Assembly (NCBI GenBank): GCA_963752155.1
Contig: CAVVXH010000011.1
Coordinates: forward strand, 224,001 to 288,000
Direction of reading: 5' to 3'
Length of the DNA: 64,000 bases
DNA from: an uncultured Parachlamydiaceae bacterium
GTDB lineage: Bacteria; Chlamydiota; Chlamydiia; Chlamydiales; Parachlamydiaceae
The position numbers were made by a program, and so were the translations under genes. The notes beneath the pieces are model-generated. The model made no database searches and was not told the origin of the DNA. It saw nothing but the letters and a program-made list of their open reading frames with translations. Below are positions 3,396 to 64,000 of this stretch, piece after piece. Every line of letters begins with the position of its first letter. Positions within the stretch are counted from its first letter, which is position 1.

Positions 3396-4960
3396 ATGAG
3401 CGAAATAACTGAAAATAACCAAGTCAATCAAACACCTCAGGAGTATGAGAACCTGCATAAGATCTCTCGCGATGCACAAGTCTTAAGTTCTATCTCTCAG
3501 TTGTTAGATTGGGATCACGAGACCTATATGCCGGCTGATGGGGTCAATGCCCGCAGTGAGCAGATGAAAGTGATCGCCGGAGTTATTCATAAGAGAACGT
3601 ACAGGTGATGAATTTGAGGAAGCTTTGCAAAAGCTGATCGATATCAAATCGGGCAACGTCTTAATTGAGGGCTTAAATGCGCCTCAACTAGGCAGCTTTA
3701 AAATTATGGCGTCGTGACTATATTAAAGAAGTCGCCCTTCCTTCAAGTTTTGTCGAAGAATTTGCAGAAGTCACTTCACAAGCTGTCTCTGTGTGGCGCA
3801 AAGTAAAAAAGGAAGAGTCTTATGAACAATTTGCTCCTTTCTTAGATAAGATCGTCTCCTTATGCCGAAAGAAAGCAGATTATCTTGGATACGAAGATCA
3901 TCCATATGATGCTCTCATAGACCTTTATGAACCTGAAATGACAACTAAACACATAGATCCCATCTTTTCTGAACTTGAAGCTTCTAATTCCTCTCTCCTT
4001 AAACAAATTTCAGCTGCTCCGCAAATTGATGACAGCGTTCTTTTTGGAGATTTCGATCATAAAAAGCAACTCGAATTTAGTTTAGTTTTACTAAATGCCA
4101 TGGGATACGTCCGTTCCAAAGGGCGTTTAGATATCTCATCACACCCTTTTTCATGTTCACTTCACCCCACAGACACTCGAATTACCACTCGCATCCACCC
4201 CACAGGGCTCATGAGCAATATCTACTCTGTACTACACGAAGGGGGCCATGCGATCTATGATATGGGGCTGCCAGCCGAACAATTCGGATCCCCTCTTGGA
4301 CAAGCTATTTCCTATGGGATGCATGAATCGCAATCGCGTTGGTGGGAAACTCGCATTGGCAAAAGTAAGGGGTTTTGGCAATATTACCTTCCAATTTTAA
4401 AGCAGTATTTCCCCGAAGCCCTGCATCAAATTGATCTAGATACATTTTATAGAGCCATTAATAAAGTGCAGCCCTCTTTGATTCGCGTAGAAGCAGATGA
4501 AGTAGGTTATCCTTTGCACATCATTTTAAGGTATCAACTTGAAAGAGATCTCATAGGAGGCAAGCTCTCTGTTCGGGATATTCCTGAAGCATGGAATGCT
4601 AAAATGACAGAGCTCATAGGACTCACTCCCACAAACAATAGTGAAGGTTGCCTTCAAGATATTCATTGGTCCTTAGGATCCTTTGGTTACTTCCCTAGCT
4701 ACTCATTGGGAAATATCTATGCAAGTCAACTATTCACTGCTTTTGAAAAAGCTTTCCCCTCTTGGGAAGCTGATCTTGCTAAAGGGGATTTAACTTTCAT
4801 CAGAAAATGGCTTAACGACAACGTGCATAGGTTTGGTCGACAATATTCAATTCCGGAGTTGATGCAAAAAGTGACTAACGAACCTCTTTCTGCAAAAGCC
4901 TATACCGACTACCTTAACACAAAATACGCTCAGATTTATGAATTAAACAAAAGCTCATGA
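3396..4960 (+). CDS. Carboxypeptidase Taq (M32 metallopeptidase), read through two +1 frameshifts near 3600 and 3690
   Basis: LLDWDHETYMP N-terminus; HEGGH zinc motif, HESQSRWWE, LIRVEADE, GCLQDIHWS..FGYFPSY; the intervening frame encodes TGDEFEEALQKL. Confidence 0.88.
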
Positions 4961-6417
4961 GCATTATGACAAAAAAGCCTCTTCGAGAGGCTATTGAGAC
5001 GAGTCAAAAAATAGATGAAATGGGAGAAGGGGAACCTTCTCAACTTCATCGAGTTCTAGGACCCTGGCAACTTATCTTATTTGGTATTGGAGCCATTGTC
5101 GGGGCAGGTCTTTTCTCTATTACCGGAATGGCTGCTGCTCAGCATGCCGGTCCGGCGATATTGATTTCATTTTTAATTGCTGCAATAGGCTGCGGATTCG
5201 CAGGATTATGCTATAGCGAACTTGCAAGCATGATTCCGATCGCTGGAAGTGCTTACACATATGCTTATATTGCTATCGGAGAACTCGTTGCATGGATGAT
5301 TGGATGGACACTTATTCTAGAGTACGCTATCGGAGCTTCCACAGTAGCCATTAGCTGGTCTGCGTATTTAGTTTCACTTTTGCATGATTTTGGAATTCAC
5401 TTGCCTGCTACGTGGACAGCTTCGCCTTGGCATTCCACACTCGTTCCTGATGGCTCTTCTGCAACTGGTTACATCAATTTGCCGGCCATTTTGATCATTA
5501 TCTTGACTTCCATTATTTTAATTTTAGGAATTAAAAAAGCTGCTTATGCGAATGCCTTTATCGTAAGCCTTAAAATAGGCATCGTCTTACTATTTATTGC
5601 GATTGGAATCCAATACATTCAACCTGAAAATTATGTCCCATTCATCCCTGAAAATACGGGGACCTTTGGTGAATTCGGTTGGAGTGGTATACTAAGGGCT
5701 TCAGGGATAATCTTTTTTGCCTATATCGGCTTTGATAGCATTTCTACAGCAGCCCAAGAAACAATCAATCCTCAAAAAAATTTACCGATCGGCATCATGA
5801 CTTCCCTTGCGATCTGCACAGTGCTCTATATTCTTTTTGCTTTTGTGATGGTAGGTCTTGTGAATTACAAAGAGCTCGATGTAGCTGCACCGGTGGCTTT
5901 GGCTATCGACAAGACTCCATATGTTTGGCTAAATATAGCAGTCAAATTAGCTGTGTTAGCGGGGTTTACGTCGGTCATGCTTATTTTACTCTTGGGTCAA
6001 TCACGCATTTTTTACGCCATGTCGTGTGATGGACTTCTTCCTCCAATTTTCTCTAAACTCCACTCACGTTGGCATACCCCCTGGATCTCAAACCTGATTC
6101 TAATGTGTTTTGTAGGTCTTTTCAGTGCGTTTGCTCCACTTTATCTTGTGGGAAATATGACGAGTATCGGAACTCTTCTAGCTTTTGCGTTGGTGTGTGG
6201 CGGAGTTTTAATCCTGCGATACACACATCCCGAGTACCCTAGAAGCTTTAAAGTGAGTTATGTCCCTACAATTCCTCTCTTAGGGATAGCAACTTGCCTA
6301 CTGATGATGTTTTCACTCAATCTGGAAACTTGGTTGAGACTTTTTATTTGGTTAGTCATAGGCTTACTTGTCTACTTTTTCTATGGTCGTCATCATGCTG
6401 ATCCTAGCTTTAAGTAG
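4957..6417 (+). CDS. Amino acid permease (APC family, cationic amino acid transporter-like)
   Basis: GIGAIVGAGLF, GSAYTYAY, FFAYIGFDSISTAAQE motifs; many hydrophobic segments; 4-bp overlap with the upstream peptidase. Confidence 0.92.
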   Translation: MSIMTKKPLREAIETSQKIDEMGEGEPSQLHRVLGPWQLILFGIGAIVGAGLFSITGMAAAQHAGPAILISFLIAAIGCGFAGLCYSELASMIPIAGSAYTYAYIAIGELVAWMIGWTLILEYAIGASTVAISWSAYLVSLLHDFGIHLPATWTASPWHSTLVPDGSSATGYINLPAILIIILTSIILILGIKKAAYANAFIVSLKIGIVLLFIAIGIQYIQPENYVPFIPENTGTFGEFGWSGILRASGIIFFAYIGFDSISTAAQETINPQKNLPIGIMTSLAICTVLYILFAFVMVGLVNYKELDVAAPVALAIDKTPYVWLNIAVKLAVLAGFTSVMLILLLGQSRIFYAMSCDGLLPPIFSKLHSRWHTPWISNLILMCFVGLFSAFAPLYLVGNMTSIGTLLAFALVCGGVLILRYTHPEYPRSFKVSYVPTIPLLGIATCLLMMFSLNLETWLRLFIWLVIGLLVYFFYGRHHADPSFK

Positions 6418-43018: not shown

Positions 43019-43615
43019 TTACATCTTTTCATGAAGTATCTGAAGAGCCTCTGCATAGGTTTCTTCGTATTCATGCATAGATTTAAAATATTTATATGTT
43101 TTCTGGTTTTTTCTTTCAGGATTGTGTGTGACATAAGTGAGTATCCCACGTCTTATCTCTCCTATCCCTATTTCCGGGTCATATACCCAATACCCTTCAT
43201 GATCGTGGTTATAAATAGCCATTTGAATATTCTCTATTGTAAAGGGCTTATTCTCTAAGGAATATTGAATCTCTTCATTTGAGGTCACATTATGTAGTAA
43301 CATCTCGGCAAATTCTATAAGAAATTTTCTCAATTGATCTTTAGAAAGATTTTGATATGAACTAAAGTCTAAACCTAATCTTTTGATCTTCCCTTCCGGC
43401 ATAGAAACTATTGTTCCAATAACGGCAATTTTATATTTTTTGGTTATTGAAGAAGATGTCTCATAAAGTATTTGGTTTACCAAACGCTCACTTTTGGAAA
43501 GATATTTATCTTCTGCATCAAACCAAAATAATATTCTATCTCGAAAATCAACTGAGATTAAGGAAGATAAGATCAAGACAATAAGAATAAAAACAATAAA
43601 ATAAATAAATTTCAT
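43019..43615 (-). CDS. Putative immunity protein for the Rhs tip
   Basis: Its ATG overlaps the Rhs stop (TAATG); AT-rich; N-terminal hydrophobic anchor; position typical of immunity genes. Confidence 0.6.
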   Translation of the reverse strand: MKFIYFIVFILIVLILSSLISVDFRDRILFWFDAEDKYLSKSERLVNQILYETSSSITKKYKIAVIGTIVSMPEGKIKRLGLDFSSYQNLSKDQLRKFLIEFAEMLLHNVTSNEEIQYSLENKPFTIENIQMAIYNHDHEGYWVYDPEIGIGEIRRGILTYVTHNPERKNQKTYKYFKSMHEYEETYAEALQILHEKM

Positions 43616-46600
43616 TATAGCTTCCCTTGTTCAATGTAATTCTTAATATTATGCTCCAAAACACCGTAGTAAGTAGGACTTGTGAAAAGATGATCATGCC
43701 AAGGAGCATCCGGATGACTCTTTAGTTGAGTTGTCGTATCTTTCGAACACCTACTCCCCCGCCCATCAAAATGAGGGATAAGATCACGATACCAGGCTGC
43801 TCGGTAATGCTGAACTTGAGCACACGTTCTCTGAAATATGTAACCTCCTGGAGCAATTGCCAAAACATCAATGTGCTTGCGTAGCTCTTCAGGATAATCA
43901 ATAAGGGCATTTCTCACGTTAACAGCGCCTTGACTATGACAAATCTGTAGATAGTTAACATCCTTATAACCATCTTTAAAAAAGTCATTCCATTCTTGAT
44001 GCAATAATCTTACAGGTTCCGTAGCTGTAAATTGATATCCATATATATATTCCTCTGCGTCACCCATAAGTCCATGTGTAGCATTATAAACTCCATGAAT
44101 ATTAAATCCACCAATCATTGAAGAAAGGTAAGTCGAACTCTCATTATAATCTTTAAAGGAATTATTGACGCCATTCGTAAATCCAATCCTTCTTCCTTCA
44201 GGTAATTCCGTCAGTCCTAAATCTGATATACAAGAAGGTTTCCAATAGTTTTCTATACAAATACCTTCGCAAATACCTCCATCTAAAATTAAATCATTAT
44301 GAGTTTTTTCAAAATTGTCATTATAAGTGATTTGTGGCAATTCAGCAGAGGTATTGCCGGAAAAATCTATAGTGTCATAAGGATTTTTATCTTGTTCAGG
44401 AATAATAGAGATTGCAACTGACATCAAACCATAACGATCAATGTAACTCGCAGGACTGTTCTTAACGTACGCGTATAAATTAGGTCCTCCACTTTGACCC
44501 AAAGGGTCTTGCATCAGCCACTGCGCTGATTTTGGATGGTAACAACGAAATCCAAAATCAATGATTCCAATGCTAGAGGTTTCATGCCTCTTTCCACAAA
44601 ATCTCCAAGGTGAAAGGGGAGTTTCTTTCAAATCTTTCCCAAACATTGTTAGAAAACTTAGATCTGCCAATTTTCCAGATTTCATCTCGACAAGGCCTAC
44701 AATATGTCTTTGAGAAGAAAAGATGGGAGAATAGAGATTCTCACCCAACTCAATAGCCATCGGCATCGATTCTTCACCTCCGGATAAAACTTTGAGGTCA
44801 ATGCACTCATTGTTGCTACTATAGGATCCTATCTCCTCATGGTTGTTATAAAGGTAATAGAGGGTTTCTCCGTTACAAGTACGTGACATTTTACGATTAA
44901 AACTATCGTAGGTATACGTCCAAGTCGAATTGTCTTGTTCGATAGTGATTAAACGATCAAAACTATCATATGTAAATTGTGTTTTAGAATCCTTTGTCCT
45001 ACGCCCTTTGGCATCGTATGTGTAGGTTTCATCAGCCCCTTGAACCAATTGTAAAAGGGCATTGTGGGTTTGTTGTTGGCCATCCACTGATATTTGCCGA
45101 TTAAGGGCATCATTTTTATAGCGATGAGAATAGAGTGCCGTTTTTTCTTGAGTAAGCTGTTGTAAGTGATCGTGCTTAAACTGTTGCAAATCGCCATTGA
45201 CTATCTTTGAAACCAAGGTTCCTCGAGAGTCATAACAAATCTCCTTTTCTTGGTAAAAAGGATAAATAATGGAAATTGCACGAGTCAATGGGTCATATTC
45301 AAGTTCAAGTGTTCCACTTTTTTGAGGAAAAACAATTCTCCTAGGTTTGCCTGTGCGATCAAAATTTTTAAATTCAGTTTGATAAACCTTTTGGCCATTT
45401 TTAATGCGCTCAGATTTCGTCAGAAAAACAGGGCTATAAGTTTGTTTAACTGATGTCCCATCGGGATAAATACATTCCACAAGACGATTCATCCGATCAT
45501 AGACGTAACATATCTTTAAGCCGTTTTCAAATTTCTCAGAAAGCAGAGCTCCTTCCGATGAATATTTACGGACGGTTTTTTTATGGGTGTTAAGATTCTC
45601 TACGATAGTGGGTTGGCTTTTCTTATTGTAGATATAGTGATAATGAACTGATTTATCATTAGACCACTCTTCAGCAAGCCTGCCGATTCCATCATAGAGA
45701 GAATGTTTTGATGTTCCATTTGCATATTGATTTTCCGAAAGCTCTCCACGATGATTGTAGATGAAGGAAGTGGCAATCTGTTCAGAGGTGCCTGCACCAT
45801 TCACTTGGTGTATCAGACGTGAACATGAATCATATTCATAGAGTGTAAAAATAGTCTCATTGGGAAGATGATGTTCTTTTCGTACCATCTTGCCATTTAG
45901 ATCGTAATAATATTCTACGTTGGATAATAGTTTACCAGAAGGTGAGAACATTTTTGTACTTACAGGAGATCCTTTAGCGTCCGATAGAGTCATCGTTTTC
46001 ACGCCTTTAGGGTCCACCATCTCTAAGCAAGGTAAATTTATGCCTTCGTATAGGAAGTCATAATGATGTCGATAATAGGTTGTGTTGCCTAAAGCATCTG
46101 TCGTGGAGCTTAAATTACCTCTTGGATCATAGGTATTTTTTGTTGTTGCTTCACCTCCATGAGTTTGTTTCGTCGTAGAGATAACGTGGTTACTAGCATC
46201 ATAAGCTGTTCTGGTTTTAGTATAAATCCTGCCAGTTGCATCGACTTCACTTCTTGCAATGACTCGATTGAGCAAGTCGTATTCAAACTTAGTCGCTATA
46301 TAGTCTTGATCATTATCACCAAAATAATGCCATTCTTCATCGATTCTTCCCAAAGCGTCGTAAACGTATTTGGTTAACCTGTTGCCTTTGCGAATTTCCA
46401 AAACCCTGCCGGCAAAATCATATTTATATTTAGTTTTTACCCCTTCTTCATCTGTCTCTGAAACCAATAAGCTACCGGAATATTTTTTACTGATTTCTTT
46501 TAATAATTTGCCATCGCAATCATAAGTTGTTTCAGAAATAAGCCTTGACAAAGCGTCGTAGGCATAAAGGACTTTAGAATTATTTCTTTCCTTTTTTTCG

Positions 46601-49059
46601 AGAAGTTCTCCATAAAGTGAATAATGAAATTCCTCTGACGTTCCGTCGGGAAAACTAATTTGCAAGGGCAATCCGGCATCATTCGGTTTGTAGGTTGTGA
46701 CCGCTCCATTGGCATCAATTTCTGCAATCAAATTTCCTAGGAAATTATATTTCTTTCGTATTTTGGGCGTAATCCATTCTCCTGTTTCTGTTCTAATCGG
46801 AGGATAGATAATTTCTACGGGTCTTCCTTGTGCGTTATAAGCAAATTTAGTGGTGAATCCATAGGAATCTTGAATCTTAACCAATCTTCCTTCTAAGTCG
46901 TAATCTCTATAGGTGGAGAGCTCGATACCGTCAGTACATTTCAGTGTTTCTTTGATGGGGCGTTGCTGCCAATCGTACGTATATTCCTTTAAGTAATTTA
47001 AATCAGGCCCTTGCAGTTGTATTAAGGATCCATAGAGATTAAATTTTCGATGGGTCTTTTGTCCTATGGGATCTGATTCAATTATAGCATTTCCTCTTAG
47101 ATCGTTTGTCTTTTCAATTTGATACACAAATGCATTATTGGCATCATAGTAGGATTCCTTTTGTACATAACCGTGGGAATCGTAATCTAAAACTGTTCGA
47201 GAAATTCTATGCTCTTCAAGGCCATTTGAGCTCCATAAATCAATTTCTATTGGCAATCCCGCAAAAGTTGTCGTTCTATTTTTCATACGAAGGATTTTAC
47301 GGCACTTTACCCCTGTTAGATCTTCAGGAGAGCTTTTATAACCATCATCTTCAATTTTCAGGGTGCAACCTGCGTTCAAATCAAATTCATAAAATTGACG
47401 TTTTAGAATTTTGCCATCTTGTTGCACGAGAATGGATTTTGTTAAATTCGTTTCTTTTCCTTCACGTTTGTGATAGGTGAAAAGAGTTTCGAGCCTGCCC
47501 TCATGTTCTGTTACAAGTAAATTGAGGGCATTGTAAGTGTAGTGAGTCGATTTGACTTCTCCACCTTTTAGAGAACAATTAGTTTCAGTAGAGAGATCGC
47601 CTTTAACAACAATTGGAGGTGTATTTGCCCCTGTAAAGGTCTTGAAAATGCAATTTTTCTTTAGAACGTTTCCTCGTTCATCATATTCAAATTCTTCTGC
47701 AAAATGGATCACTCCATCCTTATTTTCCACTGTTTTAAAAAGTAAGTCACCTTCAAGCGGAGTCGATTTGGCCCCAAAGTGAAAGTTTTCCCGTCGATAA
47801 ATCGAACGTTTGTTAGAACCTTTATACCTTTCAATGGAACTTAAGCGATAATCTTTGGAGGAATAGTGAAATCGCGTCAGAAAGTTGCAAGAATCATAGA
47901 CATCAGTGAAGGCTTTTTTTGTTTCTTTATTTTTGTAGTAGGCAAATTGGCAGATTGGACGGAGGTCATGATGGTTATTTACTGCCATACTAATTTGGCG
48001 AACACGATCGCGATGGGATTTTTTTAAGGTTTGAGGATTTTCCCCATACACACTCATTGTATCTCCCTTTTTGTAATACTCAATGGCTACTCTATGGTGA
48101 TATCCATATCGATTTGATAGCTTTGACCCATCTTCGGGATTTGTATAGGTATAATATTCAGTGGGGAAATAATTAGATCCAGCTGCATTCATTAAAACAT
48201 TCGGACATCTATAGTCTTCTGTATCATGGAATTCAAAAAAATATCTTACAAGTTTCCCTTCATCTGAATTAGCATCGATTGAAAAGGGTTTTTTCAGATT
48301 TGCCATTTTAATAGGGTTGCCTGTGGGAAATGTAAATGCAATCTGATTAGAAACTTCTTCAGCATGTGTTAGCGCCTTAACTTTGTTTAAGATATGTCCT
48401 TCGGTTTCGTAAGTTGTTTTCAAGCCGTTTGGCCTTTTGGTAAATTTAAGATTATTTTCGGAATGGTGGTCAGGAAGGTGTTTTGAATATGAGACACAAT
48501 GATAAAAATTCTCTGTGCCATCCCCATTGATGACATTAACTCCTGCGTGTGAATGGATCGTCCGGATATTTTTGATGTTGGTTCGACCGGAAATTTCCCC
48601 TTTACCACTGTTTGTCACTCCTTTTCTAAGTATATCTTTATTAATTTTGAGGGGATCTGTCCTTTTTTCAATCGCAGTCTTAAAAGGAATGTCTCCGGAA
48701 ACAGATCCGGAAGTGATCACATGGAAATATTTTTTGCAGGTCGAAGGATAAGTCATGGCGGTCCCGACCATATTGTGGGACCAGTAGTTCCAAAACCCAC
48801 CACATTGAAATCTAGAACTGCAATAGGTTCTTTGTAGGATTAAGGGATTAGAACCGGGAAGTGCAAAATCCACACATGCATAATGGTAATCTCCATTAAT
48901 GACATTCACACCAAAAATGTTCGTCGAAGGGATTCCATAAATCGCTGTTAGGGGTGTATGTGATGATTCCAATATTTCATTTTCAGTTGGAACCGAAGTT
49001 GTATTCGCCAAAAGAAAGAATGGAGTCATCAGAAGAAAGGAAAGAATAAAACAGGACAT
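43615..49059 (-). CDS. RHS/YD-repeat protein with signal peptide and C-terminal alpha/beta-hydrolase-like domain
   Basis: VNVINGDY...LQRTY N-domain; many YDxxGR repeats; core PWRFCGKR...FGFRCYHP...W...DPLG...GPNLYAYVKNSP...IDRYGL; tip has CHSQGA, D.IP and DH.F. Confidence 0.92.
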   Translation of the reverse strand: MSCFILSFLLMTPFFLLANTTSVPTENEILESSHTPLTAIYGIPSTNIFGVNVINGDYHYACVDFALPGSNPLILQRTYCSSRFQCGGFWNYWSHNMVGTAMTYPSTCKKYFHVITSGSVSGDIPFKTAIEKRTDPLKINKDILRKGVTNSGKGEISGRTNIKNIRTIHSHAGVNVINGDGTENFYHCVSYSKHLPDHHSENNLKFTKRPNGLKTTYETEGHILNKVKALTHAEEVSNQIAFTFPTGNPIKMANLKKPFSIDANSDEGKLVRYFFEFHDTEDYRCPNVLMNAAGSNYFPTEYYTYTNPEDGSKLSNRYGYHHRVAIEYYKKGDTMSVYGENPQTLKKSHRDRVRQISMAVNNHHDLRPICQFAYYKNKETKKAFTDVYDSCNFLTRFHYSSKDYRLSSIERYKGSNKRSIYRRENFHFGAKSTPLEGDLLFKTVENKDGVIHFAEEFEYDERGNVLKKNCIFKTFTGANTPPIVVKGDLSTETNCSLKGGEVKSTHYTYNALNLLVTEHEGRLETLFTYHKREGKETNLTKSILVQQDGKILKRQFYEFDLNAGCTLKIEDDGYKSSPEDLTGVKCRKILRMKNRTTTFAGLPIEIDLWSSNGLEEHRISRTVLDYDSHGYVQKESYYDANNAFVYQIEKTNDLRGNAIIESDPIGQKTHRKFNLYGSLIQLQGPDLNYLKEYTYDWQQRPIKETLKCTDGIELSTYRDYDLEGRLVKIQDSYGFTTKFAYNAQGRPVEIIYPPIRTETGEWITPKIRKKYNFLGNLIAEIDANGAVTTYKPNDAGLPLQISFPDGTSEEFHYSLYGELLEKKERNNSKVLYAYDALSRLISETTYDCDGKLLKEISKKYSGSLLVSETDEEGVKTKYKYDFAGRVLEIRKGNRLTKYVYDALGRIDEEWHYFGDNDQDYIATKFEYDLLNRVIARSEVDATGRIYTKTRTAYDASNHVISTTKQTHGGEATTKNTYDPRGNLSSTTDALGNTTYYRHHYDFLYEGINLPCLEMVDPKGVKTMTLSDAKGSPVSTKMFSPSGKLLSNVEYYYDLNGKMVRKEHHLPNETIFTLYEYDSCSRLIHQVNGAGTSEQIATSFIYNHRGELSENQYANGTSKHSLYDGIGRLAEEWSNDKSVHYHYIYNKKSQPTIVENLNTHKKTVRKYSSEGALLSEKFENGLKICYVYDRMNRLVECIYPDGTSVKQTYSPVFLTKSERIKNGQKVYQTEFKNFDRTGKPRRIVFPQKSGTLELEYDPLTRAISIIYPFYQEKEICYDSRGTLVSKIVNGDLQQFKHDHLQQLTQEKTALYSHRYKNDALNRQISVDGQQQTHNALLQLVQGADETYTYDAKGRRTKDSKTQFTYDSFDRLITIEQDNSTWTYTYDSFNRKMSRTCNGETLYYLYNNHEEIGSYSSNNECIDLKVLSGGEESMPMAIELGENLYSPIFSSQRHIVGLVEMKSGKLADLSFLTMFGKDLKETPLSPWRFCGKRHETSSIGIIDFGFRCYHPKSAQWLMQDPLGQSGGPNLYAYVKNSPASYIDRYGLMSVAISIIPEQDKNPYDTIDFSGNTSAELPQITYNDNFEKTHNDLILDGGICEGICIENYWKPSCISDLGLTELPEGRRIGFTNGVNNSFKDYNESSTYLSSMIGGFNIHGVYNATHGLMGDAEEYIYGYQFTATEPVRLLHQEWNDFFKDGYKDVNYLQICHSQGAVNVRNALIDYPEELRKHIDVLAIAPGGYIFQRTCAQVQHYRAAWYRDLIPHFDGRGSRCSKDTTTQLKSHPDAPWHDHLFTSPTYYGVLEHNIKNYIEQGKL

Positions 49060-56354: not shown

Positions 56355-57569
56355 ATGGGAACTATTTTCACTGTAACTTTTCCCGATATTGGAGAAGGTG
56401 TCGTCGAGGGGGAAGTGATTGAATGGCACAAAAAAGAAGGGGACTCGGTTAAACAAGATGAGCCTGTTGTGATGGTCATGACCGACAAGGCCACAGTAGA
56501 GCTCCCCTCTCCTCATCCCGGAATATTTAAAAAGCAATACTATGCGCCCGGGGAAATGGCTATTAAGGATAAGCCATTATACGATATTGAACTAGCTGAA
56601 GGTCAAAAGGGAGAGCAAACTGAACGAACCAAGAAAACTGATCCCATTCATCATTCTGAACAAAAACAAGCAATTCCCGTTCCTCCTACATCTAATGAGT
56701 CTTCCATAGGTAAAAATTTAGCGACTCCAAAAGTTAGAGGACTTGCGAAAGAATTAGGAATTTCGATCGAAGAGATCCATGGAACAGGCAAAGATGGAAG
56801 AGTGACTTCTGAAGATCTGCGTCAAAAAACTATGTGTTCGATGACTTCGGTAACTCCTTTGTGGCATCTACCAGGAGACACGGAAATGCCGATCATAGGC
56901 ATTAAAGCGCGAATGGCCAAAAAAATGACCGAATCGAAAGAACTGATTCCTTCATTTTCTTATTTTGAAGAAGTTGAAGTTACCCGTTTAATTCAATTAA
57001 AAGCGAGCATGAAAACCAAAGCCACGCAAGAAGGAGTCCATCTGACATACATGCCTTTTATTCTCAAGGCACTTTCTGCATGTATCGTTAAATTTCCTTT
57101 TTTGAATAGTTCGTATGATAAAGAAAATTCGAAACTTATTTTACACCGTCAACAAAACATTGGTATTGCTGTAGCGACCCCTTTAGGGCTGATTGTACCT
57201 GTATTAAAGGAAATTGAGAAGTTATCATTGGAACCCCTCATCCGCAACTATGAAGAGCTCATTTTGCGTGCGCAGCAAGGTAAATTGCATCCTTCGGATA
57301 TGAAAGAAGCGACTTTTACTGTCAGTAATTTTGGCAGCAATGGAAGCCATGGACTGTGGGCAACCCCAGTCATTAACTACCCCGAAGTGGCGATTCTTGC
57401 CATAGGGAAGATCCATGCACAGCCGGTTGTGAGAAATGGAGAAGTTGTCGTGCGAGAAATGCTCAATTTATCCTGGAGCTTCGACCATCGAATTATCGAT
57501 GGAGAAGCAGCAGCACATATTTCGAGTCATCTATGCAAGCTGTTGCAAAATCCAGCGAGTCTACTTTAA
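56355..57569 (+). CDS. Dihydrolipoamide acyltransferase E2
   Basis: PDIGEGV.EGE, MTDKATVE lipoyl-Lys, ATPKVR.LA binding domain, SFDHRIIDG catalytic motif. Confidence 0.93.
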   Translation: MGTIFTVTFPDIGEGVVEGEVIEWHKKEGDSVKQDEPVVMVMTDKATVELPSPHPGIFKKQYYAPGEMAIKDKPLYDIELAEGQKGEQTERTKKTDPIHHSEQKQAIPVPPTSNESSIGKNLATPKVRGLAKELGISIEEIHGTGKDGRVTSEDLRQKTMCSMTSVTPLWHLPGDTEMPIIGIKARMAKKMTESKELIPSFSYFEEVEVTRLIQLKASMKTKATQEGVHLTYMPFILKALSACIVKFPFLNSSYDKENSKLILHRQQNIGIAVATPLGLIVPVLKEIEKLSLEPLIRNYEELILRAQQGKLHPSDMKEATFTVSNFGSNGSHGLWATPVINYPEVAILAIGKIHAQPVVRNGEVVVREMLNLSWSFDHRIIDGEAAAHISSHLCKLLQNPASLL

Positions 57570-57602
57570 GGCAGGAAATCAGGACATAAATCGCTGAACA
57601 TA

Positions 57603-58634
57603 TCAAAATAGAGTGCAGCTAACACCAAGTGATTGCAGGTTTTCACCAGGCGCGATGATCCCTTTTACAGCATTCATCATTGCTACTCTTTCTTCACAAC
57701 TCATTTTCCTTAAGGCTATCAGCTCTTGACTTTTTATTTCTTGACGTTTTAACTGCGCTCGGTTCTCTTCTTCAAGCTTTTTTTGTGCAAAGCCTAAGTC
57801 CACCTCTTTATTTTTTAGGCGATTTTCTCGCTTTGCATTCTTTTCCTGTAAACTCTGCTTTCGATAATCTATGTCTTTTTGATGTGCAAATACTTCACTT
57901 TGTAACTGCATTTCAAAGGCCCGATACTTCTCTTTTGAAGCAAATTGAGCATGTTGTAAAAATAAACCAAACATTTCTTTTTCTTCGTTAAGTTTTTGGA
58001 CACGCTTAGTCAATTCAATTCCAAGCTCGTGATTTTGTTGATCCCTTAAAATCTGTGCTTGTTCAGCGACTAGGTGAATTTCTGTCATTCTCGCTGAAAA
58101 TAATAGGGTGATTGCTCTTTCACATTTTCCCAACTGATCCTGTTGATTGATGAGCGCAATCGATCTTTCCGCATGAGAAAAAAGAGCTTCAATGAGCTCT
58201 TTGATAGCATTTCCCCAAGATTGGAAATTCTGAACATCGGCAGGCACAGCAGTACCTGCACGAATTTTATTATGTACATCACGAAAGTACTCTAGACGAA
58301 GTCCGATTAATTGTTTTGTTTCTGTTCTGCAGTCTTGGATAATTCCCCTAATTTGTTTTCTATCATCTTCTAAAATTTCGTACTGAATGTTTAAGATTTC
58401 CATCATTTTACTGTGAATTTCCAGTGTTGCTTGTGATGTAAGGAGCCCTCCTTGTAAACTGGTCAGGGTAGCATCAGCGCTGCGATTAGATACATTAAGC
58501 CCATACGGATCCGCACGATCGATCCCGTAATTAACACCATGGGCAGACGCATTCACCCCATATGGGTCTCTTCGATTAATCCCATAGCCACCATCATACT
58601 GATGACCAGCAACTAAATTATATGGATCTGCCAT
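57603..58634 (-). CDS. Coiled-coil protein with N-terminal DPYG repeats and C-terminal CaaX (CTLF)
   Basis: 343 aa; AGGAG RBS; ends VSCTLF*. Confidence 0.8.
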   Translation of the reverse strand: MADPYNLVAGHQYDGGYGINRRDPYGVNASAHGVNYGIDRADPYGLNVSNRSADATLTSLQGGLLTSQATLEIHSKMMEILNIQYEILEDDRKQIRGIIQDCRTETKQLIGLRLEYFRDVHNKIRAGTAVPADVQNFQSWGNAIKELIEALFSHAERSIALINQQDQLGKCERAITLLFSARMTEIHLVAEQAQILRDQQNHELGIELTKRVQKLNEEKEMFGLFLQHAQFASKEKYRAFEMQLQSEVFAHQKDIDYRKQSLQEKNAKRENRLKNKEVDLGFAQKKLEEENRAQLKRQEIKSQELIALRKMSCEERVAMMNAVKGIIAPGENLQSLGVSCTLF

Positions 58635-58644
58635 AAAATCTCCT

Positions 58645-59478
58645 TTATTGTAGAATGCATCCAGTTTTTTGTTTAGGTGGTCTATTTTCCCGTGCTTCTA
58701 TCCTACGGGTTTGATTGGTTTCTTTAATTTCTAGGATTCTCTCTTGATGAGCAAGAGCCTGACGCTCAGTTTGGAGTTCTAATTTTTTCTGCTTAAAGCC
58801 CAATTTTTGTCGTTCTATTTCAAGCTGTTGATCATCCTTTTGTTTTTGATATTGAAAAACTTCTCGTTGCTGTTCTCTAGCATAACCATCCTGTTCTCTT
58901 TCTAGAGAAATTTTCTCTTTCTCAATGAATTGATTAAACTTTTGCTCTTGCACTTGAAGTTCCATCTCTTTTCGTTTGACTGTCATTTCAAAATCTGCTT
59001 TTCGACATTCGATATCTAATTTGATTAATTCTTTATATTCATTCAAAAGCTTTTGCCTTAAATCAAACATAACTTTAAATAGCGCATCATATTTATCGGG
59101 ATCAAAGCCTGCATCTTGCAGTTCTATTGCCCTTGAGGCAGTTTGATAAATGAGGTTAAGATAGTTTTTATATTCCTGTGAAATAAATGTGTATGCTTTA
59201 ACTGTTTCTTGATCCAAACCTCCTTGTTCCCTAAATCGCCTGGACATCTCTTGCAGATCAGCTCTTGCTTCGGCTTGTACTTCTATTGATTCTTTTAACC
59301 ATTGATTGCAAATTTCTTTAATCTGATTCTCTTCTATTCTGATCTGATGCGAATGATTACGGAAAGCAGCTGTGATGTCGGCAAACAATGCTTTTTGATT
59401 GACATCAAGCTGTTGAAGTTGGTTGTTAGCCCTTTCAATAAGAGGCATTTGATTTGCTCTATAAACCGTTGGTTCCAT
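58645..59478 (-). CDS. Coiled-coil protein with basic tail and C-terminal CaaX (CILQ)
   Basis: Start MEPTVYR after AAGGAG; ends RPPKQKTGCILQ*. Confidence 0.8.
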   Translation of the reverse strand: MEPTVYRANQMPLIERANNQLQQLDVNQKALFADITAAFRNHSHQIRIEENQIKEICNQWLKESIEVQAEARADLQEMSRRFREQGGLDQETVKAYTFISQEYKNYLNLIYQTASRAIELQDAGFDPDKYDALFKVMFDLRQKLLNEYKELIKLDIECRKADFEMTVKRKEMELQVQEQKFNQFIEKEKISLEREQDGYAREQQREVFQYQKQKDDQQLEIERQKLGFKQKKLELQTERQALAHQERILEIKETNQTRRIEARENRPPKQKTGCILQ

Positions 59479-59530
59479 GATTTCTCCTTTTTTTCTAGAA
59501 AAAATAAAGCGAATTGCGTAGTTGTTATTC

Positions 59531-61117
59531 CTAATCTGGTCCCATGAGATCAATTACTCTTTTTTGGGCCTCTTTGTTGCCGTTTACAACATCTTTTATG
59601 TCTTGCTCCGTAATACCCTTTGCCCTAAGCAGATCGTCTACCCTTTCTTGGGATGTCATGTATTGCAAAAACTTCACAGATTTTTCCCCTACTCCCAAAC
59701 TTTGGGCTACCGTAGCTAATACAAAACCATATGGATTTTTCTTGATTAACCAAGGAGCTAAATCAATTGTATTACTAATAATCTTCTCGACGAATGACAA
59801 CTCAACATCTTCATTTTGCTGCTGGTTTTTTGGTTGGTCTTGCAAATTATGATTGGTATGGACATTGGGGATTTGAGGATTTTCTTGTCTACGGCTACCA
59901 GAAAAACTCAGAGTTTGATGAGACATTGCTTGTGGAGATTGAATTGGAAATTCTACTTTCTTAGGTTGAGCATTCAGTGGACGCGGGCTGGGCTTATCAA
60001 TGGTAGAGCTTATAGTCAATGAAGAAGGGTTCGGACTTGCTTGCAAGACTCTTGGAGCTGGATTTGTGGAATGGAGATGACTACCCCTTCCGATTTCAGG
60101 AACTTTGCTATTTAATACACGTCCAGATTGAGCTTGAGAAGCAAAATGGGGAATCACTTGCCCCGCTAGAGAAATGATTCGGTCGAAAGAGGCAATCCTA
60201 TCTTGCGAATTCATTTTTGCTAATTCTACATGTTCAATACTGCTAATTTTCCTCATTTCTATATCTCGTGTATTACTTTGAGCATTAAGGTTACACTCAC
60301 GATGATAATCAAGTTGTTTATTCTGTACCTGATTATCTAATCGAACTTTCTTCTTTTCTAAATCGAATTTCGCAAAGTCGAATTTTTCTAAGTGATCTTG
60401 TTTTCTCATGGTCATCATATTTTCAAATTGTCTCTGATTTTCTTCAGAAAGTAACTTTGCTCTTACTAAAACCTGCTGAAATTTCTGTGCTTCTTCTTGA
60501 AGAACGAGGTTTCTCTGCTTAATTTCTATTTCTAATTCATGATTTTCCTGTTTGCGTAATTCTTCCATACGAGTTTTAACTTCTTGTATATCCAGCATCC
60601 TCCCACGGAAAATTGCTTCAATCTCAGATAGATAATCATCGAGTTTCTTTTCTCTTAGTTGCTTGGCAAGAGAAAGAGCTTGAACAGCGATGTGGAAGCA
60701 GTGATCGTTGTATTCACAAACAGCTTTTTTTACAAACTGCCTTCGTCGTTCTGCTTGTTGTATGTCTCCTCCTTGACGAACAAACTCAATTTCTTCAAGA
60801 GTCACTTCTTTAAATTTTTGGGTCATGATCTTGGAGTCTCTTTGCCAATCGTCACATTTTTCTTCAACATCCCAATCTTCTGCAGTAAACGTGGGCACTG
60901 TTACATCGGAAATACGCCTGCCTCCTCTTGTTGACAACTCTTTTGCCAATTCATGGCTAGGCAATGACTCCTGTTGATGCCGACTATCCCAAGAAGTAGA
61001 ATCAAAAAGATAATTACCCGAAGCAACATTTTGTACTGGGTTGATTTGTTGCGTTGAATTAAACTCAAATCCGCCCCAGCTTGTTGATATTGAATTTTTA
61101 GATACCCCTGTTTGCAT
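59531..61117 (-). CDS. Coiled-coil protein with Pro/Ser/Gln-rich linker (array member)
   Basis: Start MQTGVSK avoids overlap with the upstream gene; shares the IF..R...........ENHELEIE......L.EE.QKF block with neighbours. Confidence 0.78.
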   Translation of the reverse strand: MQTGVSKNSISTSWGGFEFNSTQQINPVQNVASGNYLFDSTSWDSRHQQESLPSHELAKELSTRGGRRISDVTVPTFTAEDWDVEEKCDDWQRDSKIMTQKFKEVTLEEIEFVRQGGDIQQAERRRQFVKKAVCEYNDHCFHIAVQALSLAKQLREKKLDDYLSEIEAIFRGRMLDIQEVKTRMEELRKQENHELEIEIKQRNLVLQEEAQKFQQVLVRAKLLSEENQRQFENMMTMRKQDHLEKFDFAKFDLEKKKVRLDNQVQNKQLDYHRECNLNAQSNTRDIEMRKISSIEHVELAKMNSQDRIASFDRIISLAGQVIPHFASQAQSGRVLNSKVPEIGRGSHLHSTNPAPRVLQASPNPSSLTISSTIDKPSPRPLNAQPKKVEFPIQSPQAMSHQTLSFSGSRRQENPQIPNVHTNHNLQDQPKNQQQNEDVELSFVEKIISNTIDLAPWLIKKNPYGFVLATVAQSLGVGEKSVKFLQYMTSQERVDDLLRAKGITEQDIKDVVNGNKEAQKRVIDLMGPD

Positions 61118-61145
61118 AAAACTTACCCTTATTAAAACAATTGAT

Positions 61146-62018
61146 TTACTGAATCGAACAACGTTTATGGTGATGATGACCACGACCACCTCTTGGAACT
61201 GGTTGTTGGACTGGCCGTGGAGCTGGTGCTGCAGGGGCAGGTGGAAGACCAACTCCTTCACATTCTACGCTACCTGGTTTCACTAATTTATTTACCCAGT
61301 CAATCTCAGGCGGGATTGCTTTCACTTTCTTGTTTACGTGATTTCCTTTAATGAAGATCTGTGCAACAGCAAGTTCATTTGCGTGAGCTTGTATATACTT
61401 ATCAAAAGTCTCCTGCAGCATATTCCTTTCCACTGCTTCTTTTTGTAGTTGCAGTTCTTGTACTTTGTTCATTTCTTGGAGCTTTCTAGCGTTTTCTTGA
61501 TTCCTTGCGATTTCTTCTATCTCTCGTTCTCTTTCTCGGATTTGTTGTTGAGCTCTTTCAAACTCTAAGTTTCTTTGTTGGATAATTCCTGCTGCTTGAC
61601 TTGACTGTTGGAATGCTTCCCATTGGGCCTTTAATACCATGTCAATAATATTTTGAACTCTCTCTATGGAAGCATTTTGCATTTCAAGTGCTTTAGTAGC
61701 AAACACTTCAAATGTCTGAGCTTGACTATCTTTTGCCAGAACCATAACTTCCTTATAAATTGCTATTAATTCTTTTTGCTCAGCAAGAGGTAATCCTTTT
61801 ATTTCTTGAAGAAGCTGTTGATGCGTTTGTGATATTGCGTCTCGAGCTACTTTGTAAGCTTGTACCAATTCTTCTTGTGTCCTCGTATGATCTTCACCAA
61901 TTTTTTGCATAATTCCTTGGACAGCCACTATTACTTGAGGTGGAAGTTGTATTATCTGTCCGTCTTGGTTATAAGCGTCAACGATATTGTTTAATCCACC
62001 GATTGCCACTGGTTCCAT
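61146..62018 (-). CDS. Coiled-coil protein with Pro-rich linker, basic/His tail and C-terminal CaaX (CSIQ)
   Basis: GAGGAG RBS; ends PRGGRGHHHHKRCSIQ*. Confidence 0.8.
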   Translation of the reverse strand: MEPVAIGGLNNIVDAYNQDGQIIQLPPQVIVAVQGIMQKIGEDHTRTQEELVQAYKVARDAISQTHQQLLQEIKGLPLAEQKELIAIYKEVMVLAKDSQAQTFEVFATKALEMQNASIERVQNIIDMVLKAQWEAFQQSSQAAGIIQQRNLEFERAQQQIREREREIEEIARNQENARKLQEMNKVQELQLQKEAVERNMLQETFDKYIQAHANELAVAQIFIKGNHVNKKVKAIPPEIDWVNKLVKPGSVECEGVGLPPAPAAPAPRPVQQPVPRGGRGHHHHKRCSIQ

Positions 62019-62068
62019 TTTTTTCTCCTCTCATTTGCGTGGGCTTGGACATATTTATCAAAAGTTTC

Positions 62069-62452
62069 CTAAAACTGCTCTTTTTTAATTGCACGCCAAT
62101 TTAATTCATTTTGCTTTTCTCTAGTTTTGAGTAAAACTTCTATTCCCTGATTATTGGCTGCTTTTATCCGATCACATTGCTTTTCTGTAGCTCTATTGAA
62201 TTGATCGTAGTTGGAAATCATTTCTTGATGTGTCATATGATGTAAATCAGAATACAAGGAAACCAATTCTTCTTTCTCTTGAGTAGATTTGCCTTTCATT
62301 TCTTGCAATAGTTGTTGTTGGGTATTGAGAAATTGTGACATAACATCATCCGAAGTCTGTTGCAAACACTGTAAAGATCGTTCTCTTGCATTAAGTAGTG
62401 TTTGTGCTTCTTGGCTAAATATCTCACCGATTAGCGGTAAAACGGGATTCAT
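62069..62452 (-). CDS. Short helical protein (array member)
   Basis: Start MNPVLP after AAGGAG; TQQQLLQEMKG motif shared with neighbours. Confidence 0.75.
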   Translation of the reverse strand: MNPVLPLIGEIFSQEAQTLLNARERSLQCLQQTSDDVMSQFLNTQQQLLQEMKGKSTQEKEELVSLYSDLHHMTHQEMISNYDQFNRATEKQCDRIKAANNQGIEVLLKTREKQNELNWRAIKKEQF

Positions 62453-62463
62453 AAAATCTCCTT

Positions 62464-63639
62464 TCATTGGTTATGAAAATTTCTTATGTTCTCTCGGATT
62501 TTTTCAATTTCTTCTTCATAGTTTCTCTCAAAGATCTGGTGTTGATAAGCAAGCGATCTTTTTTGCATTTCTATAGCAAAAAGCTCATTTAACTTTTTTC
62601 TTTCAAATGCTTTTGCTTCTTGGCTCTGAGAAAATCTTTGCTCATTTTTTTTGTGATCTAATTCGTTGAACTTAAGTAACTGTAAAATTTTCTGTCCTTC
62701 CTCTGTAAGTTTGATTTTGTGGAAGACAACAGCCATCTCAAGTTCAGCTGATGATGCTTCATTCAGCAAGAAGATTTTTTCTTTTAATAACCCAAGATGT
62801 TGTATGCGAATTGCAAAGATCAAATTGAGAGTTTCTTGATACTTTCTTAATTGGGTATTAAATTGTAATAGATCGAGCTTAAGGGCATATTCTGCAGTCT
62901 GTAAGTAAAATTCAGCAAGTTCTTTTTCCGCTTGGATCAAAAATTCAGCACCATTTTCTCTTTCCAGGTTTCTTTCGCGTTTATTTAAAATATTATCACT
63001 AGCTTGGAGCAAATGATCGACATATTGGTTTTGAGCTGACCTGTATTGTATTTTAAATAAACGGATCTGTTCTTGAATCCATTCATTGAAATGGAAATTC
63101 GGATTCGGAAATTTTTGTCTTAATTGAACTGCTTCCTCTTCAAGCCATTGGTAAACTTCTAAATCTTTAGATGGATCATATGGTATCAATTCCATTCCCA
63201 ACGACTCAATTTCTAGTTGATGTACTTCAACAATACTCATTTGCTCCAAAACAGCACATTGTTTTGTATGGATAGAAGAACCCAAATTCATTTCATGCTG
63301 TACTCTTTGTTTTTCAGCATTCATTTTTACTTGAATGATGCCACTATCAATATCAGAAGTAGAGACTATTTTCTCAAAAGTTTGTTGGTTTGATTCCATG
63401 GCTTTTTTAAAAACCGGCAGAGCTTTTTTTAAAGCTTCAAGTTTTTTGCCTTGCATTTGTTGGAGAATTGCTTGATGAGTAGTACTAACAGACCTTTGAT
63501 GTATTTCTAAATCTTTAGATAGGCTATCTCGCTGACTTTTTGCAATACCATCAATCGCTCTGGTATCGATTGAAGTATTGGGATTTCCCCTATAAAGCAA
63601 AACTGATGAATCAACAACACTTAAAGTACTAACTGACAT
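62464..63639 (-). CDS. Coiled-coil protein carrying both array motifs
   Basis: GAGGT RBS; THQAILQQMQG and LIFAIR...ELEM...KLTEEGQK blocks. Confidence 0.78.
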   Translation of the reverse strand: MSVSTLSVVDSSVLLYRGNPNTSIDTRAIDGIAKSQRDSLSKDLEIHQRSVSTTHQAILQQMQGKKLEALKKALPVFKKAMESNQQTFEKIVSTSDIDSGIIQVKMNAEKQRVQHEMNLGSSIHTKQCAVLEQMSIVEVHQLEIESLGMELIPYDPSKDLEVYQWLEEEAVQLRQKFPNPNFHFNEWIQEQIRLFKIQYRSAQNQYVDHLLQASDNILNKRERNLERENGAEFLIQAEKELAEFYLQTAEYALKLDLLQFNTQLRKYQETLNLIFAIRIQHLGLLKEKIFLLNEASSAELEMAVVFHKIKLTEEGQKILQLLKFNELDHKKNEQRFSQSQEAKAFERKKLNELFAIEMQKRSLAYQHQIFERNYEEEIEKIRENIRNFHNQ

Positions 63640-63647
63640 CTTTTACC

Positions 63648-64000
63648 TCAATAAATAGATTCTTCTATTTTTTTCAAAGCCTCTAAAAAATTTACTAAAT
63701 TTTTTGACATTTCCCACTCTTCAAGTAATTTCTGGTACATTTGAATAATAATCTGAGAGTCATGTTCATTAAATTTACCGAGAACAATAAGTTTTTTTTG
63801 AATTGACAATAGAATTTTTTTTATCTCAAAGTTTGGGACTTTGAATATCAATTGTCGATATTCATTCTCAAATGATTGTTTTTGCACTGCATCTTGGTTA
63901 AACTGTTGTGCACGAAGCCGTTGCTTTATTTGATCTTGACGTAGTTCTTCGCGAACAGCAACAACTGCCGCTTTTGCATCTTTTCTAATTTCTTCAAACT
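63648..64000 (-). CDS. Helical protein, 5' end outside the window (probable array member)
   Basis: Frame is open to the window edge: ...FEEIRKDAKAAVVAVREELRQDQIKQRLRAQQFNQDAVQKQSFENEY...; stop lies 8 nt before the next start. Confidence 0.65.
   Translation of the reverse strand, partial: FEEIRKDAKAAVVAVREELRQDQIKQRLRAQQFNQDAVQKQSFENEYRQLIFKVPNFEIKKILLSIQKKLIVLGKFNEHDSQIIIQMYQKLLEEWEMSKNLVNFLEALKKIEESIY

Follow-up and report, generated by a model that had tools for sequence, protein, structure and literature searches.

The window analysed here is a 64,000-nucleotide stretch of DNA from an uncultured Parachlamydiaceae bacterium (G000:C11:224001-288000, where G000 denotes the source genome, which is 80% complete). 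It contains part of an eight-gene array, g1 to g8, which is located on an islet and encodes three proteins ending in the CaaX box of eukaryotic prenylation substrates. Homologue counts strongly indicate that a eukaryote-type CaaX box is under selection across one family, to which g1, g2, g3, and g6 belong. We lean, if only slightly, towards the view that the islet encodes the subunits of a secreted, host-prenylated helical scaffold, i.e., a flotillin-like single-layer wall lacking SPFH homology. Host prenylation of single bacterial effectors is already known; a whole family under CaaX selection, the split into anchored and cargo-bearing subunits, and the predicted cage-wall helix were not found in the literature searched. 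If true, an intracellular bacterium would be erecting a structure on host membranes by a means not described so far.

Seven open reading frames (ORFs) occupy positions 57603-64000 of the window, all on the minus strand and in the same orientation. The array is transcribed from g8 to g1, with the rest of g7 and all of g8 lying beyond the window end. The intergenic gaps in this order measure 89, 8, 11, 50, 28, 52, and 10 nt, and the starts are preceded by purine-rich sites resembling ribosome-binding sites (RBSs). Hence, the layout given in the initial annotation (at least seven co-oriented genes, mostly with RBSs, and gaps of 8-52 nt) is borne out and extends to eight genes. The three exact Cys-a-a-X-stop ends noted there are likewise present: g1 terminates in CTLF, g2 in CILQ, and g4 in CSIQ, so that three of the eight array proteins carry a canonical CaaX box. 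None of the seven in-window proteins has a Pfam or NCBIfam match near the cut-off, in keeping with the earlier remark that no enzyme motif was recognisable. A segment of transmembrane strength occurs in none of the eight (maximal 19-residue hydropathy 0.38-1.13). Promoter and terminator counts equal those of shuffled sequences.

The array proteins fall largely into two groups. The main family, matched by one profile, comprises g1 (57603..58634, minus strand, 343 aa), g2 (58645..59478, minus, 277 aa from an ATG with RBS, ending KTGCILQ), g3 (59531..61117, minus, 528 aa), and the C-terminal half of g6 (62464..63639, minus, 391 aa). g3 is CaaX-less, shares 30% identity with g1 over 149 aa, and has a long linker of low complexity as well as a small region at its C terminus; the family domain of g6 is CaaX-less too. 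The second, g4-type group consists of g4 (61146..62018, minus, 290 aa), g5 (62069..62452, minus, approximately 127 aa), g8 (G000:C11:289420-289983, minus, 187 aa), and, weakly, the hairpin-like N-terminal half of g6. g4 combines a hairpin, a 148-residue helix, a C-terminal β-hairpin, and a Pro/His/basic tail in front of CSIQ. g5 is a short, hairpin-only, CaaX-less paralogue that is possibly truncated, and g8 is the first gene of the array, upstream of g7. His-rich tails are found on g4-type proteins, namely g8 and the homologue in genome G110 (L079:6857-7873), with four His in g4 (window 61146-61200). The link between the two groups, which align in the expected register at their sole conserved motif, is weak (hhalign probability 11-14%), so that they may or may not share an origin. 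The 560-aa, Q/E/K-rich g7 (63648..64000 in the window; whole gene G000:C11:287648-289330, minus) belongs to neither group.

How far three CaaX ends exceed chance can be appreciated from the genome itself. Among the G000 ORFs of at least 150 aa, Cys stands at position -4 in 43 of 2064, compared with 20-40 at the other 14 terminal positions, and a canonical CaaX box closes 14 of 2064, compared with 1-4 at six shifted offsets. The genome is therefore mildly enriched in CaaX ends, three of the 14 being in the array. The probability of at least three such proteins among eight is about 1e-4; as this estimate was made post hoc and concerns paralogous genes, the real test lies in the homologue counts.

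A search with g1 alone against 400 scored genomes of the class (G005 was not scored) gave eight outside matches, one of which, RNase Y, was dropped. All of the remaining seven end in CaaX, the alignment reaching the tail in just one. A profile of g1 and its relatives, run with unindexed HMMER against 1.84 billion representatives (clusters at 50% identity), retrieved 137 proteins. CaaX ends were counted in the 128 homologues that are neither seeds nor near-seeds; P0105, P0129, and P0133, which fail the core profile and are probably false matches, were kept in. Cys occupies position -4 in 78 of the 128; each of the positions -1 to -3 and -5 to -11 has it in 0-2, and position -12 in 5. The terminal Cys-a-a-X, on whose conservation in homologues the initial annotation had staked its reading, is hence retained by most of them. 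With a tail-free profile, from which the last 45 residues had been removed, the counts are 76/123, 64/83, and 40/43 at E-values of 1e-3, 1e-10, and 1e-20. The box is canonical in 82 of 86 cases, with I, V, or L at a2 in 80 and M, Q, or S at X in 71 (M 43, Q 18, S 10, L 7, F 4). These a2 and X preferences match the eukaryotic CaaX enzymes, and the mix corresponds mostly to farnesylation by known specificity. At least four K/R precede the box in just 9 of 86 members; the Ras/Rho-like basic stretch described earlier is thus not a family trait.

Host CaaX prenyltransferases, mostly farnesyltransferase, very probably lipidate the C-terminal Cys, as this pattern of motif selection strongly argues. 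It is highly improbable that the proteins stay inside the bacterium or are prenylated by a symbiont-encoded enzyme and form an intrabacterial scaffold. Another environmental chlamydia is reported to encode 15 prenyltransferase-domain proteins (10.1101/2024.11.28.625222), and the type III export genes of the G000 assembly look interrupted. However, the a2 and X preferences fit the eukaryotic enzymes, named carriers of the family are all chlamydiae, and neither PPTA nor Prenyltrans is matched in G000 (80% complete; the Prenyltrans control was silent everywhere).

Further G000 ORFs with canonical CaaX ends are, by their termini, candidate prenylated effectors, for example C7:27638-28747 (CVIQ), C10:54141-55259 (CVIQ), C6:283694-286033 (CMIQ), C6:240738-243602 (CVIS), C1:346-1533 (CLIL), and C12:64030-64743 (CIIL).

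Host prenylation is established for Legionella AnkB, the Pel proteins (PelA/E/F/H/J), and Salmonella SifA (PMC2916131, PMC4951486). They resemble the array family in being proteins of intracellular organisms with a canonical CaaX end that is read as a host prenyltransferase substrate. They differ in being separate proteins with enzyme or adaptor domains, whereas in the array family CaaX marks a whole set of paralogues, whose genes form operon-like cassettes that include conserved CaaX-less partners and whose products are predicted to share a wall. Pfam, NCBIfam, and the PDB sequences gave no family-level match to host-prenylated effectors.

The predicted fold of the main family was derived from an AlphaFold2 model of g1 based on 98 sequences (mean pLDDT 83). 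It shows a disordered head (residues 1-50), a short helix (51-62), a helical hairpin (67-126 and 131-164), and one continuous helix of 158 residues (167-324), followed by a low-confidence coil as the tail. The g4 model, built from six sequences (pLDDT 78), has a similar outline plus a C-terminal β-hairpin. The long helix is two-faced and not a heptad coiled coil, as judged from the family alignment: hydrophobicity follows a period of 1.8 (0 of 1000 shuffles as strong), while no 3.6 signal is seen (493 of 1000 shuffles; 3.4-3.75 tested). In single sequences, 1.8 is favoured over 3.6 in 80 of 97 members, compared with 39 of 99 other windows of G000 that are charged and helical. The lamin-like or intermediate-filament heptad rod to which the initial annotation had compared these proteins was rejected on these grounds. 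As in the array, transmembrane segments are lacking throughout the family; no member among 98 reaches a 19-residue hydropathy of 1.9, and four reach 1.6.

Self-association of g1 is supported by complex modelling. Four copies of residues 48-297 gave a score of 0.51, compared with 0.00 for the best of three controls. Proteins solved as one-chain pairs attain this mark in 20 of 30 cases and proteins solved as single chains in 1 of 23, a calibration that differs in using pairs and not four copies, the g1 model having its own alignment. At least 90% of contacts agree between the four-copy runs, with pLDDT values of at least 73. Each modelled copy contacts two neighbours, parallel and in register. 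In residues 200-262, the two contact faces share no residue and follow a period of 3.61, the angle between them being 195° (165° by the shorter route). As the seams of a four-stranded coiled coil are approximately 90° apart, the modelled geometry is that of a wall, either flat or slightly curved. The hydrophobicity maxima of the family fall on both contact faces, and charged residues on the two free sides. Hence, the oligomeric assembly proposed in the initial annotation passes a controlled model, as far as g1 is concerned.

No known complex was matched in the collections searched, in line with the earlier statement that the cluster was not recognised as a described system. Foldseek gave no match at E 1e-3 in PDB or BFVD. 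The best structural Z-scores, 10.5 for g1 and 10.3 for g4, belong to generic hairpins and lie below the meaningful level for helical models; SPFH or vault chains are absent from the structural matches listed. No PDB sequence matches below E 0.002, the hits being just designed or generic helical proteins. ESM Atlas yielded no usable match, PHROGs none for nine proteins, and plasmids none. In word-indexed searches, g1 and g4 retrieved only themselves and alignment A3 two proteins. Pattern scans of genome, viral, and first metagenome contigs found no locus, and a second metagenome scan two copies of one locus.

The family is present in 11 of 401 genomes of the class, spanning five families. Among 30 clusters looked up, five are organism-named and all of these are Chlamydiota; the named carriers are Neochlamydia sp. 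S13, Neochlamydia sp. AcF65, Parachlamydia sp. AcF125, and one chlamydial bin, with all proteins annotated as hypothetical. In a FastTree tree of 124 core domains, the deep branches of which are poorly supported, the CaaX state changes 13 times, whereas shuffled labels need 33 changes on average and none of 500 shuffles gets down to 13. g1 groups with P0044, and g2 with P0092 and P0077, all with CaaX; g3 groups with P0040, and g6 with P0094, P0115, and P0116, all CaaX-less (support 97-99). P0040 has the same layout as g3, including the missing CaaX. By these groupings, CaaX and CaaX-less subtypes hold their state across lineages. Retention of CaaX in orthologues, which the initial annotation had asked about, thus stands for g1 and g2, with g3 and g6 orthologues consistently CaaX-less, and does not stand for g4. 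The contigs are equally long for P0044 and P0092, and likewise for P0040 and P0094, which suggests that the subtypes travel together.

An intact full-length member occurs in 11 other loci (L035-L043, L077/L078 counted once, and L080), several of which come from related genomes. A CaaX member is visible in all 11 and a CaaX-less member in addition in seven, so mixed cassettes recur. An N-terminal extension of more than 300 aa is never combined with CaaX (0 of 9 members, compared with 85 of 115 others). CaaX-less domains are fused behind a Jacalin-DnaJ protein in G346 and behind a GTPase in G122 and other representatives.

The same loci bear on an unlikely but serious alternative, in which the paralogues are independent host-prenylated effectors that act singly or as small homo-oligomeric rods, for instance as tethers or trafficking decoys, with the array arising from tandem duplication. 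The array genes are indeed paralogous, a single full-length member is found in the related loci L036 and L043 and in L080, copy number and partners vary widely, and PMC4951486, in the text available, presents the prenylated effectors known so far as single proteins. Yet a free rod does not need a two-faced non-heptad helix, the four-copy model passes with two separate faces, and CaaX-less subtypes are retained beside CaaX ones across lineages. If the assembly fails, the finding would be a large new family of prenylated effectors.

The scaffold reading can be laid out in four steps. First, the proteins would exit the bacterium, probably by type III secretion through their disordered N termini. 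In the 98 members, these are S/T/P/N-rich (0.37, compared with 0.23 in 1738 ORFs) and poor in charged and aliphatic residues. G000 encodes five nucleotide transporters and type III secretion components (sctU/sctV/sctJ-like), which are marks of a chlamydia; needle-family proteins gave no match in G000, the control being silent everywhere. The second step would be the host prenylation described above. Third, the subunits are predicted to assemble parallel and in register, their straight helices of 150-160 residues forming a single-layer wall of many subunits (barrel, cage, or curved sheet), with the prenyl tails ringing one end on the host membrane and the hairpins facing away from it; such a wall is somewhat more probable than not. 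Many lipids per assembly would explain that most tails lack a polybasic second signal. Fourth, CaaX-less paralogues would join the wall via the same interface, often carrying N-terminal cargo (a P-loop GTPase or a helical-Jacalin-DnaJ protein). Gene context and fusions point to this co-assembly, which we regard as nearly, though not quite, an even prospect.

The flotillin cage is the closest working analogy. In its wall, 44 helices of 186 residues stand side by side as a single-layer barrel, which is non-heptad, carries charges on its inner and outer surfaces, is composed of two paralogues, and is held by lipids (10.1101/2024.05.09.593390, in the part available). The type of long helix is predicted to be common to the array family, flotillin-1/2, HflK/C, prohibitin, and the vault cap helix. 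However, the array family has a helical hairpin where the SPFH domain would be. No Pfam match to SPFH (Band 7) was found in 98 members, and the g1 model is all-helical after its disordered head; since the SPFH domain is lacking, the array family is not an SPFH member. The anchor differs as well, being the N-terminal SPFH1 surface in those cages, whereas here the main anchor would be the C-terminal prenyl group at the opposite end. In addition, the producer of the array proteins would be a bacterium and their target membrane that of the host, and no homology was detected. As for the C-terminal β-strand layer that closes the narrow end of SPFH cages, the g4-type proteins have a conserved C-terminal β-hairpin, and the g1 tail is modelled as low-confidence coil.

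Guanylate-binding proteins offer a second comparison. GBP1/2/5 reportedly combine a long C-terminal helix with CaaX, and CaaX-bearing and CaaX-less paralogues are said to be able to pair. Fusions of a P-loop GTPase with the family domain exist in related loci, while g1-g8 contain no GTPase and no Pfam match to GBP or GBP_C was found. The GTPase-fused members are CaaX-less; therefore, enzyme and anchor are on different subunits, unlike in GBPs.

PspA, Vipp1, and ESCRT-III are membrane-associated polymers with a short N-terminal helix, a helical hairpin, and an extended second helix. This shared outline could mean that the array encodes a membrane-remodelling polymer or conduit, ESCRT-III/PspA-like or ejection-protein-like, with the fused GTPase or J-domain as remodelling or disassembly factor; GTPase and DnaJ partners do recur, and Vipp1, PspA, CHMP, and a T7 core protein are among the weak structural matches. 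We consider it improbable. The matches lie within the noise of helical hairpins (Foldseek E 0.1-1, with 0.26-0.97 for Vipp1/PspA; Z 8.6-9.1 among 103 chains at Z of at least 8), and the CHMP4B hairpin (Z 8.9, rmsd 3.1, 79 aligned) is tied with unrelated hairpins. None of 98 members matches PspA_IM30 or Snf7, or contains a membrane-spanning hydrophobic segment at the 1.9 threshold. Furthermore, the helix 167-324 is continuous and not broken into hinged short helices (no helices 4 and 5), the predicted packing is parallel and in register, and the family carries a prenyl signal.

The α-pore-forming toxins (ClyA, Hbl/Nhe, YaxAB, MakABE) are alike in forming operons of paralogous long-helix proteins that could ring. 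MakA and YaxB appear among the weak structural matches at noise level. The array proteins differ by having CaaX tails and no hydrophobic membrane-inserting segment. By hydropathy, no bilobed hydrophobic segment of the chlamydial Inc type was found in g1-g8 or in the 98 members.

Returning to the scaffold, its partners raise a broader, more speculative idea, namely a modular host-farnesylated cage that environmental chlamydiae would export: a prenylated flotillin- or vault-like barrel on host membranes, onto or into which interchangeable CaaX-less subunits might load GTPase, J-domain/lectin, and possibly deaminase-like enzymes. Equally tentatively, this would add a bacterial membrane-microdomain or container system that is independent of SPFH and moves between lineages as a cassette. 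Recurrent partners are the helical-Jacalin-DnaJ protein, a P-loop GTPase, a short helix-only relative (often with CaaX), an NB-ARC/TPR protein with CaaX, and a deaminase-like gene.

The Jacalin-DnaJ partner has 640-660 aa, with a 360-residue helical region, a Jacalin-like lectin domain, and a DnaJ domain; it stands beside the family at L038:9938-11902, L040:9174-13028, L041:7160-9127, L042:2645-5380, and L077:5265-7247. The P-loop GTPase (GxxxxGKST, DxPG) is unclassified and either fused to a CaaX-less domain or adjacent (L039:2221-9997; P0066, P0069, P0071, P0081, P0089, P0093, P0108, P0113, and P0137), and distant relatives lie within G000 proteins of 1280-1440 aa at C6:113857-136713 and C17:59725-63924. 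NB-ARC/TPR-type proteins are encoded 3' of the family gene at L036:4523-7561 and L043:7670-11176 and end in CLVM and CLLM; the former contains a 26-residue piece that is 54% like the second helix of the family. Directly upstream of a CaaX member, a deaminase-like gene is found at L077:269-1399, L038:7446-8390, and L041:11339-12280. It carries CAE...PxCxxC, which resembles a zinc deaminase motif with Cys replacing His, and has no match in Pfam or PDB. At L077:3337-3654 and 4081-5169, half of the cassette is on the opposite strand, and a 26-codon piece of a CaaX-less gene is duplicated at the junction.

Partners of the NB-ARC/TPR and deaminase-like kinds also lend some colour to a competition or defence device, in which abundant CaaX substrates or a prenylated coat would occupy the prenylation machinery or membranes of the host and hinder other intracellular microbes. 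The patchy mobile distribution is like that of conflict genes (11 of 401 genomes; an islet with a recombinase remnant), members are found in Neochlamydia S13, a strain that lives in amoebae resistant to Legionella (PMC3991601), and Legionella AnkB requires host farnesylation (PMC2916131). Nevertheless, we find this very improbable: a direct link is absent, a mere sink needs no conserved 270-residue fold, and the available text of PMC3991601 tentatively credits other proteins with the protection.

Several findings weigh against the host-prenylated scaffold. The sctU and sctV frames are interrupted in the assembly (L085, G000:C10:588257-593152) and one nucleotide-transporter gene on C9 is likewise in two pieces, which means either assembly indel errors or decaying genes. 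The N termini of the array proteins are mixed (S/T/P/N 0.17-0.45), those of g1, g2, and g4 being at the genome average (0.21-0.24). g7 has no assigned role and gave no relative in homologue searches. The CaaX box of g4 is found in none of three outside homologues and may therefore be a local gain; those in G152 and G110 share the C-terminal β-hairpin and not the CaaX. Four of the 11 other loci have no visible CaaX-less member, two of these being cut by contig ends. Eight of the nine long-extension members form one clade, so that the long fusions are not independent. Finally, the alignment used for the periodicity also fed the g1 complex model. The model moreover tends toward side-by-side helices, and its contact lists come without coordinates, so that ring closure and subunit number lie beyond them.

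As far as searched, the family is undescribed: no description was found in the open-access papers searched. The genome paper of Neochlamydia S13 (PMC3991601) does not contain the word "prenyl" in the text available. The main text of PMC2916131, in the part available, is silent on chlamydiae; its Table S1 lists bacterial CaaX proteins and could bear on prior notice. If the assembly is true, it would mean that the SPFH-type membrane cage has been arrived at a second time with an unrelated protein. To our knowledge, it would also be the first such cage built by a bacterium in its host using host lipidation. With named members in Neochlamydia and Parachlamydia strains, the family offers a way to examine by experiment how host membranes are organised by chlamydiae that live in amoebae.

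The islet appears to result from an old site-specific integration, because 147-bp repeats derived from an E2 gene flank the array and a recombinase fragment lies at the right copy. The 2-oxoacid dehydrogenase E2 gene (56355..57569, plus strand) has its 3' end at the integration site, and a second copy of its final 42 residues is encoded at the opposite end of the islet. The left direct repeat (57441..57587, plus strand) consists of the 3' end of this gene and 18 bp; the right one (G000:C11:290423-290569) is beyond the window, after the serine-recombinase fragment (C11:290120 on). The two copies are 92.5% identical by blastn, and a single 143-aa ORF at the right repeat matches both Pfam Resolvase (E 8e-11) and 2-oxoacid_dh (E 1e-8). 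The islet between the repeats measures 8835 bp and has a G+C content of 36.6%, compared with 38.4% for the contig. No family match was found in G133, a genome of the same genus that is 99% complete; different DNA follows its E2 gene, but the contig stops approximately 390 bp further on. The single DNA run examined gave short low-depth pieces only. A MITE-like palindromic repeat of approximately 240-280 bp (G000:C11:290557-290836), with dozens of copies in the genome, abuts the right direct repeat. Elsewhere in the window, positions 43615-49059 (minus strand) encode an Rhs protein of 1814 aa, which has DUF6531 and, at its C terminus, an unassigned domain.

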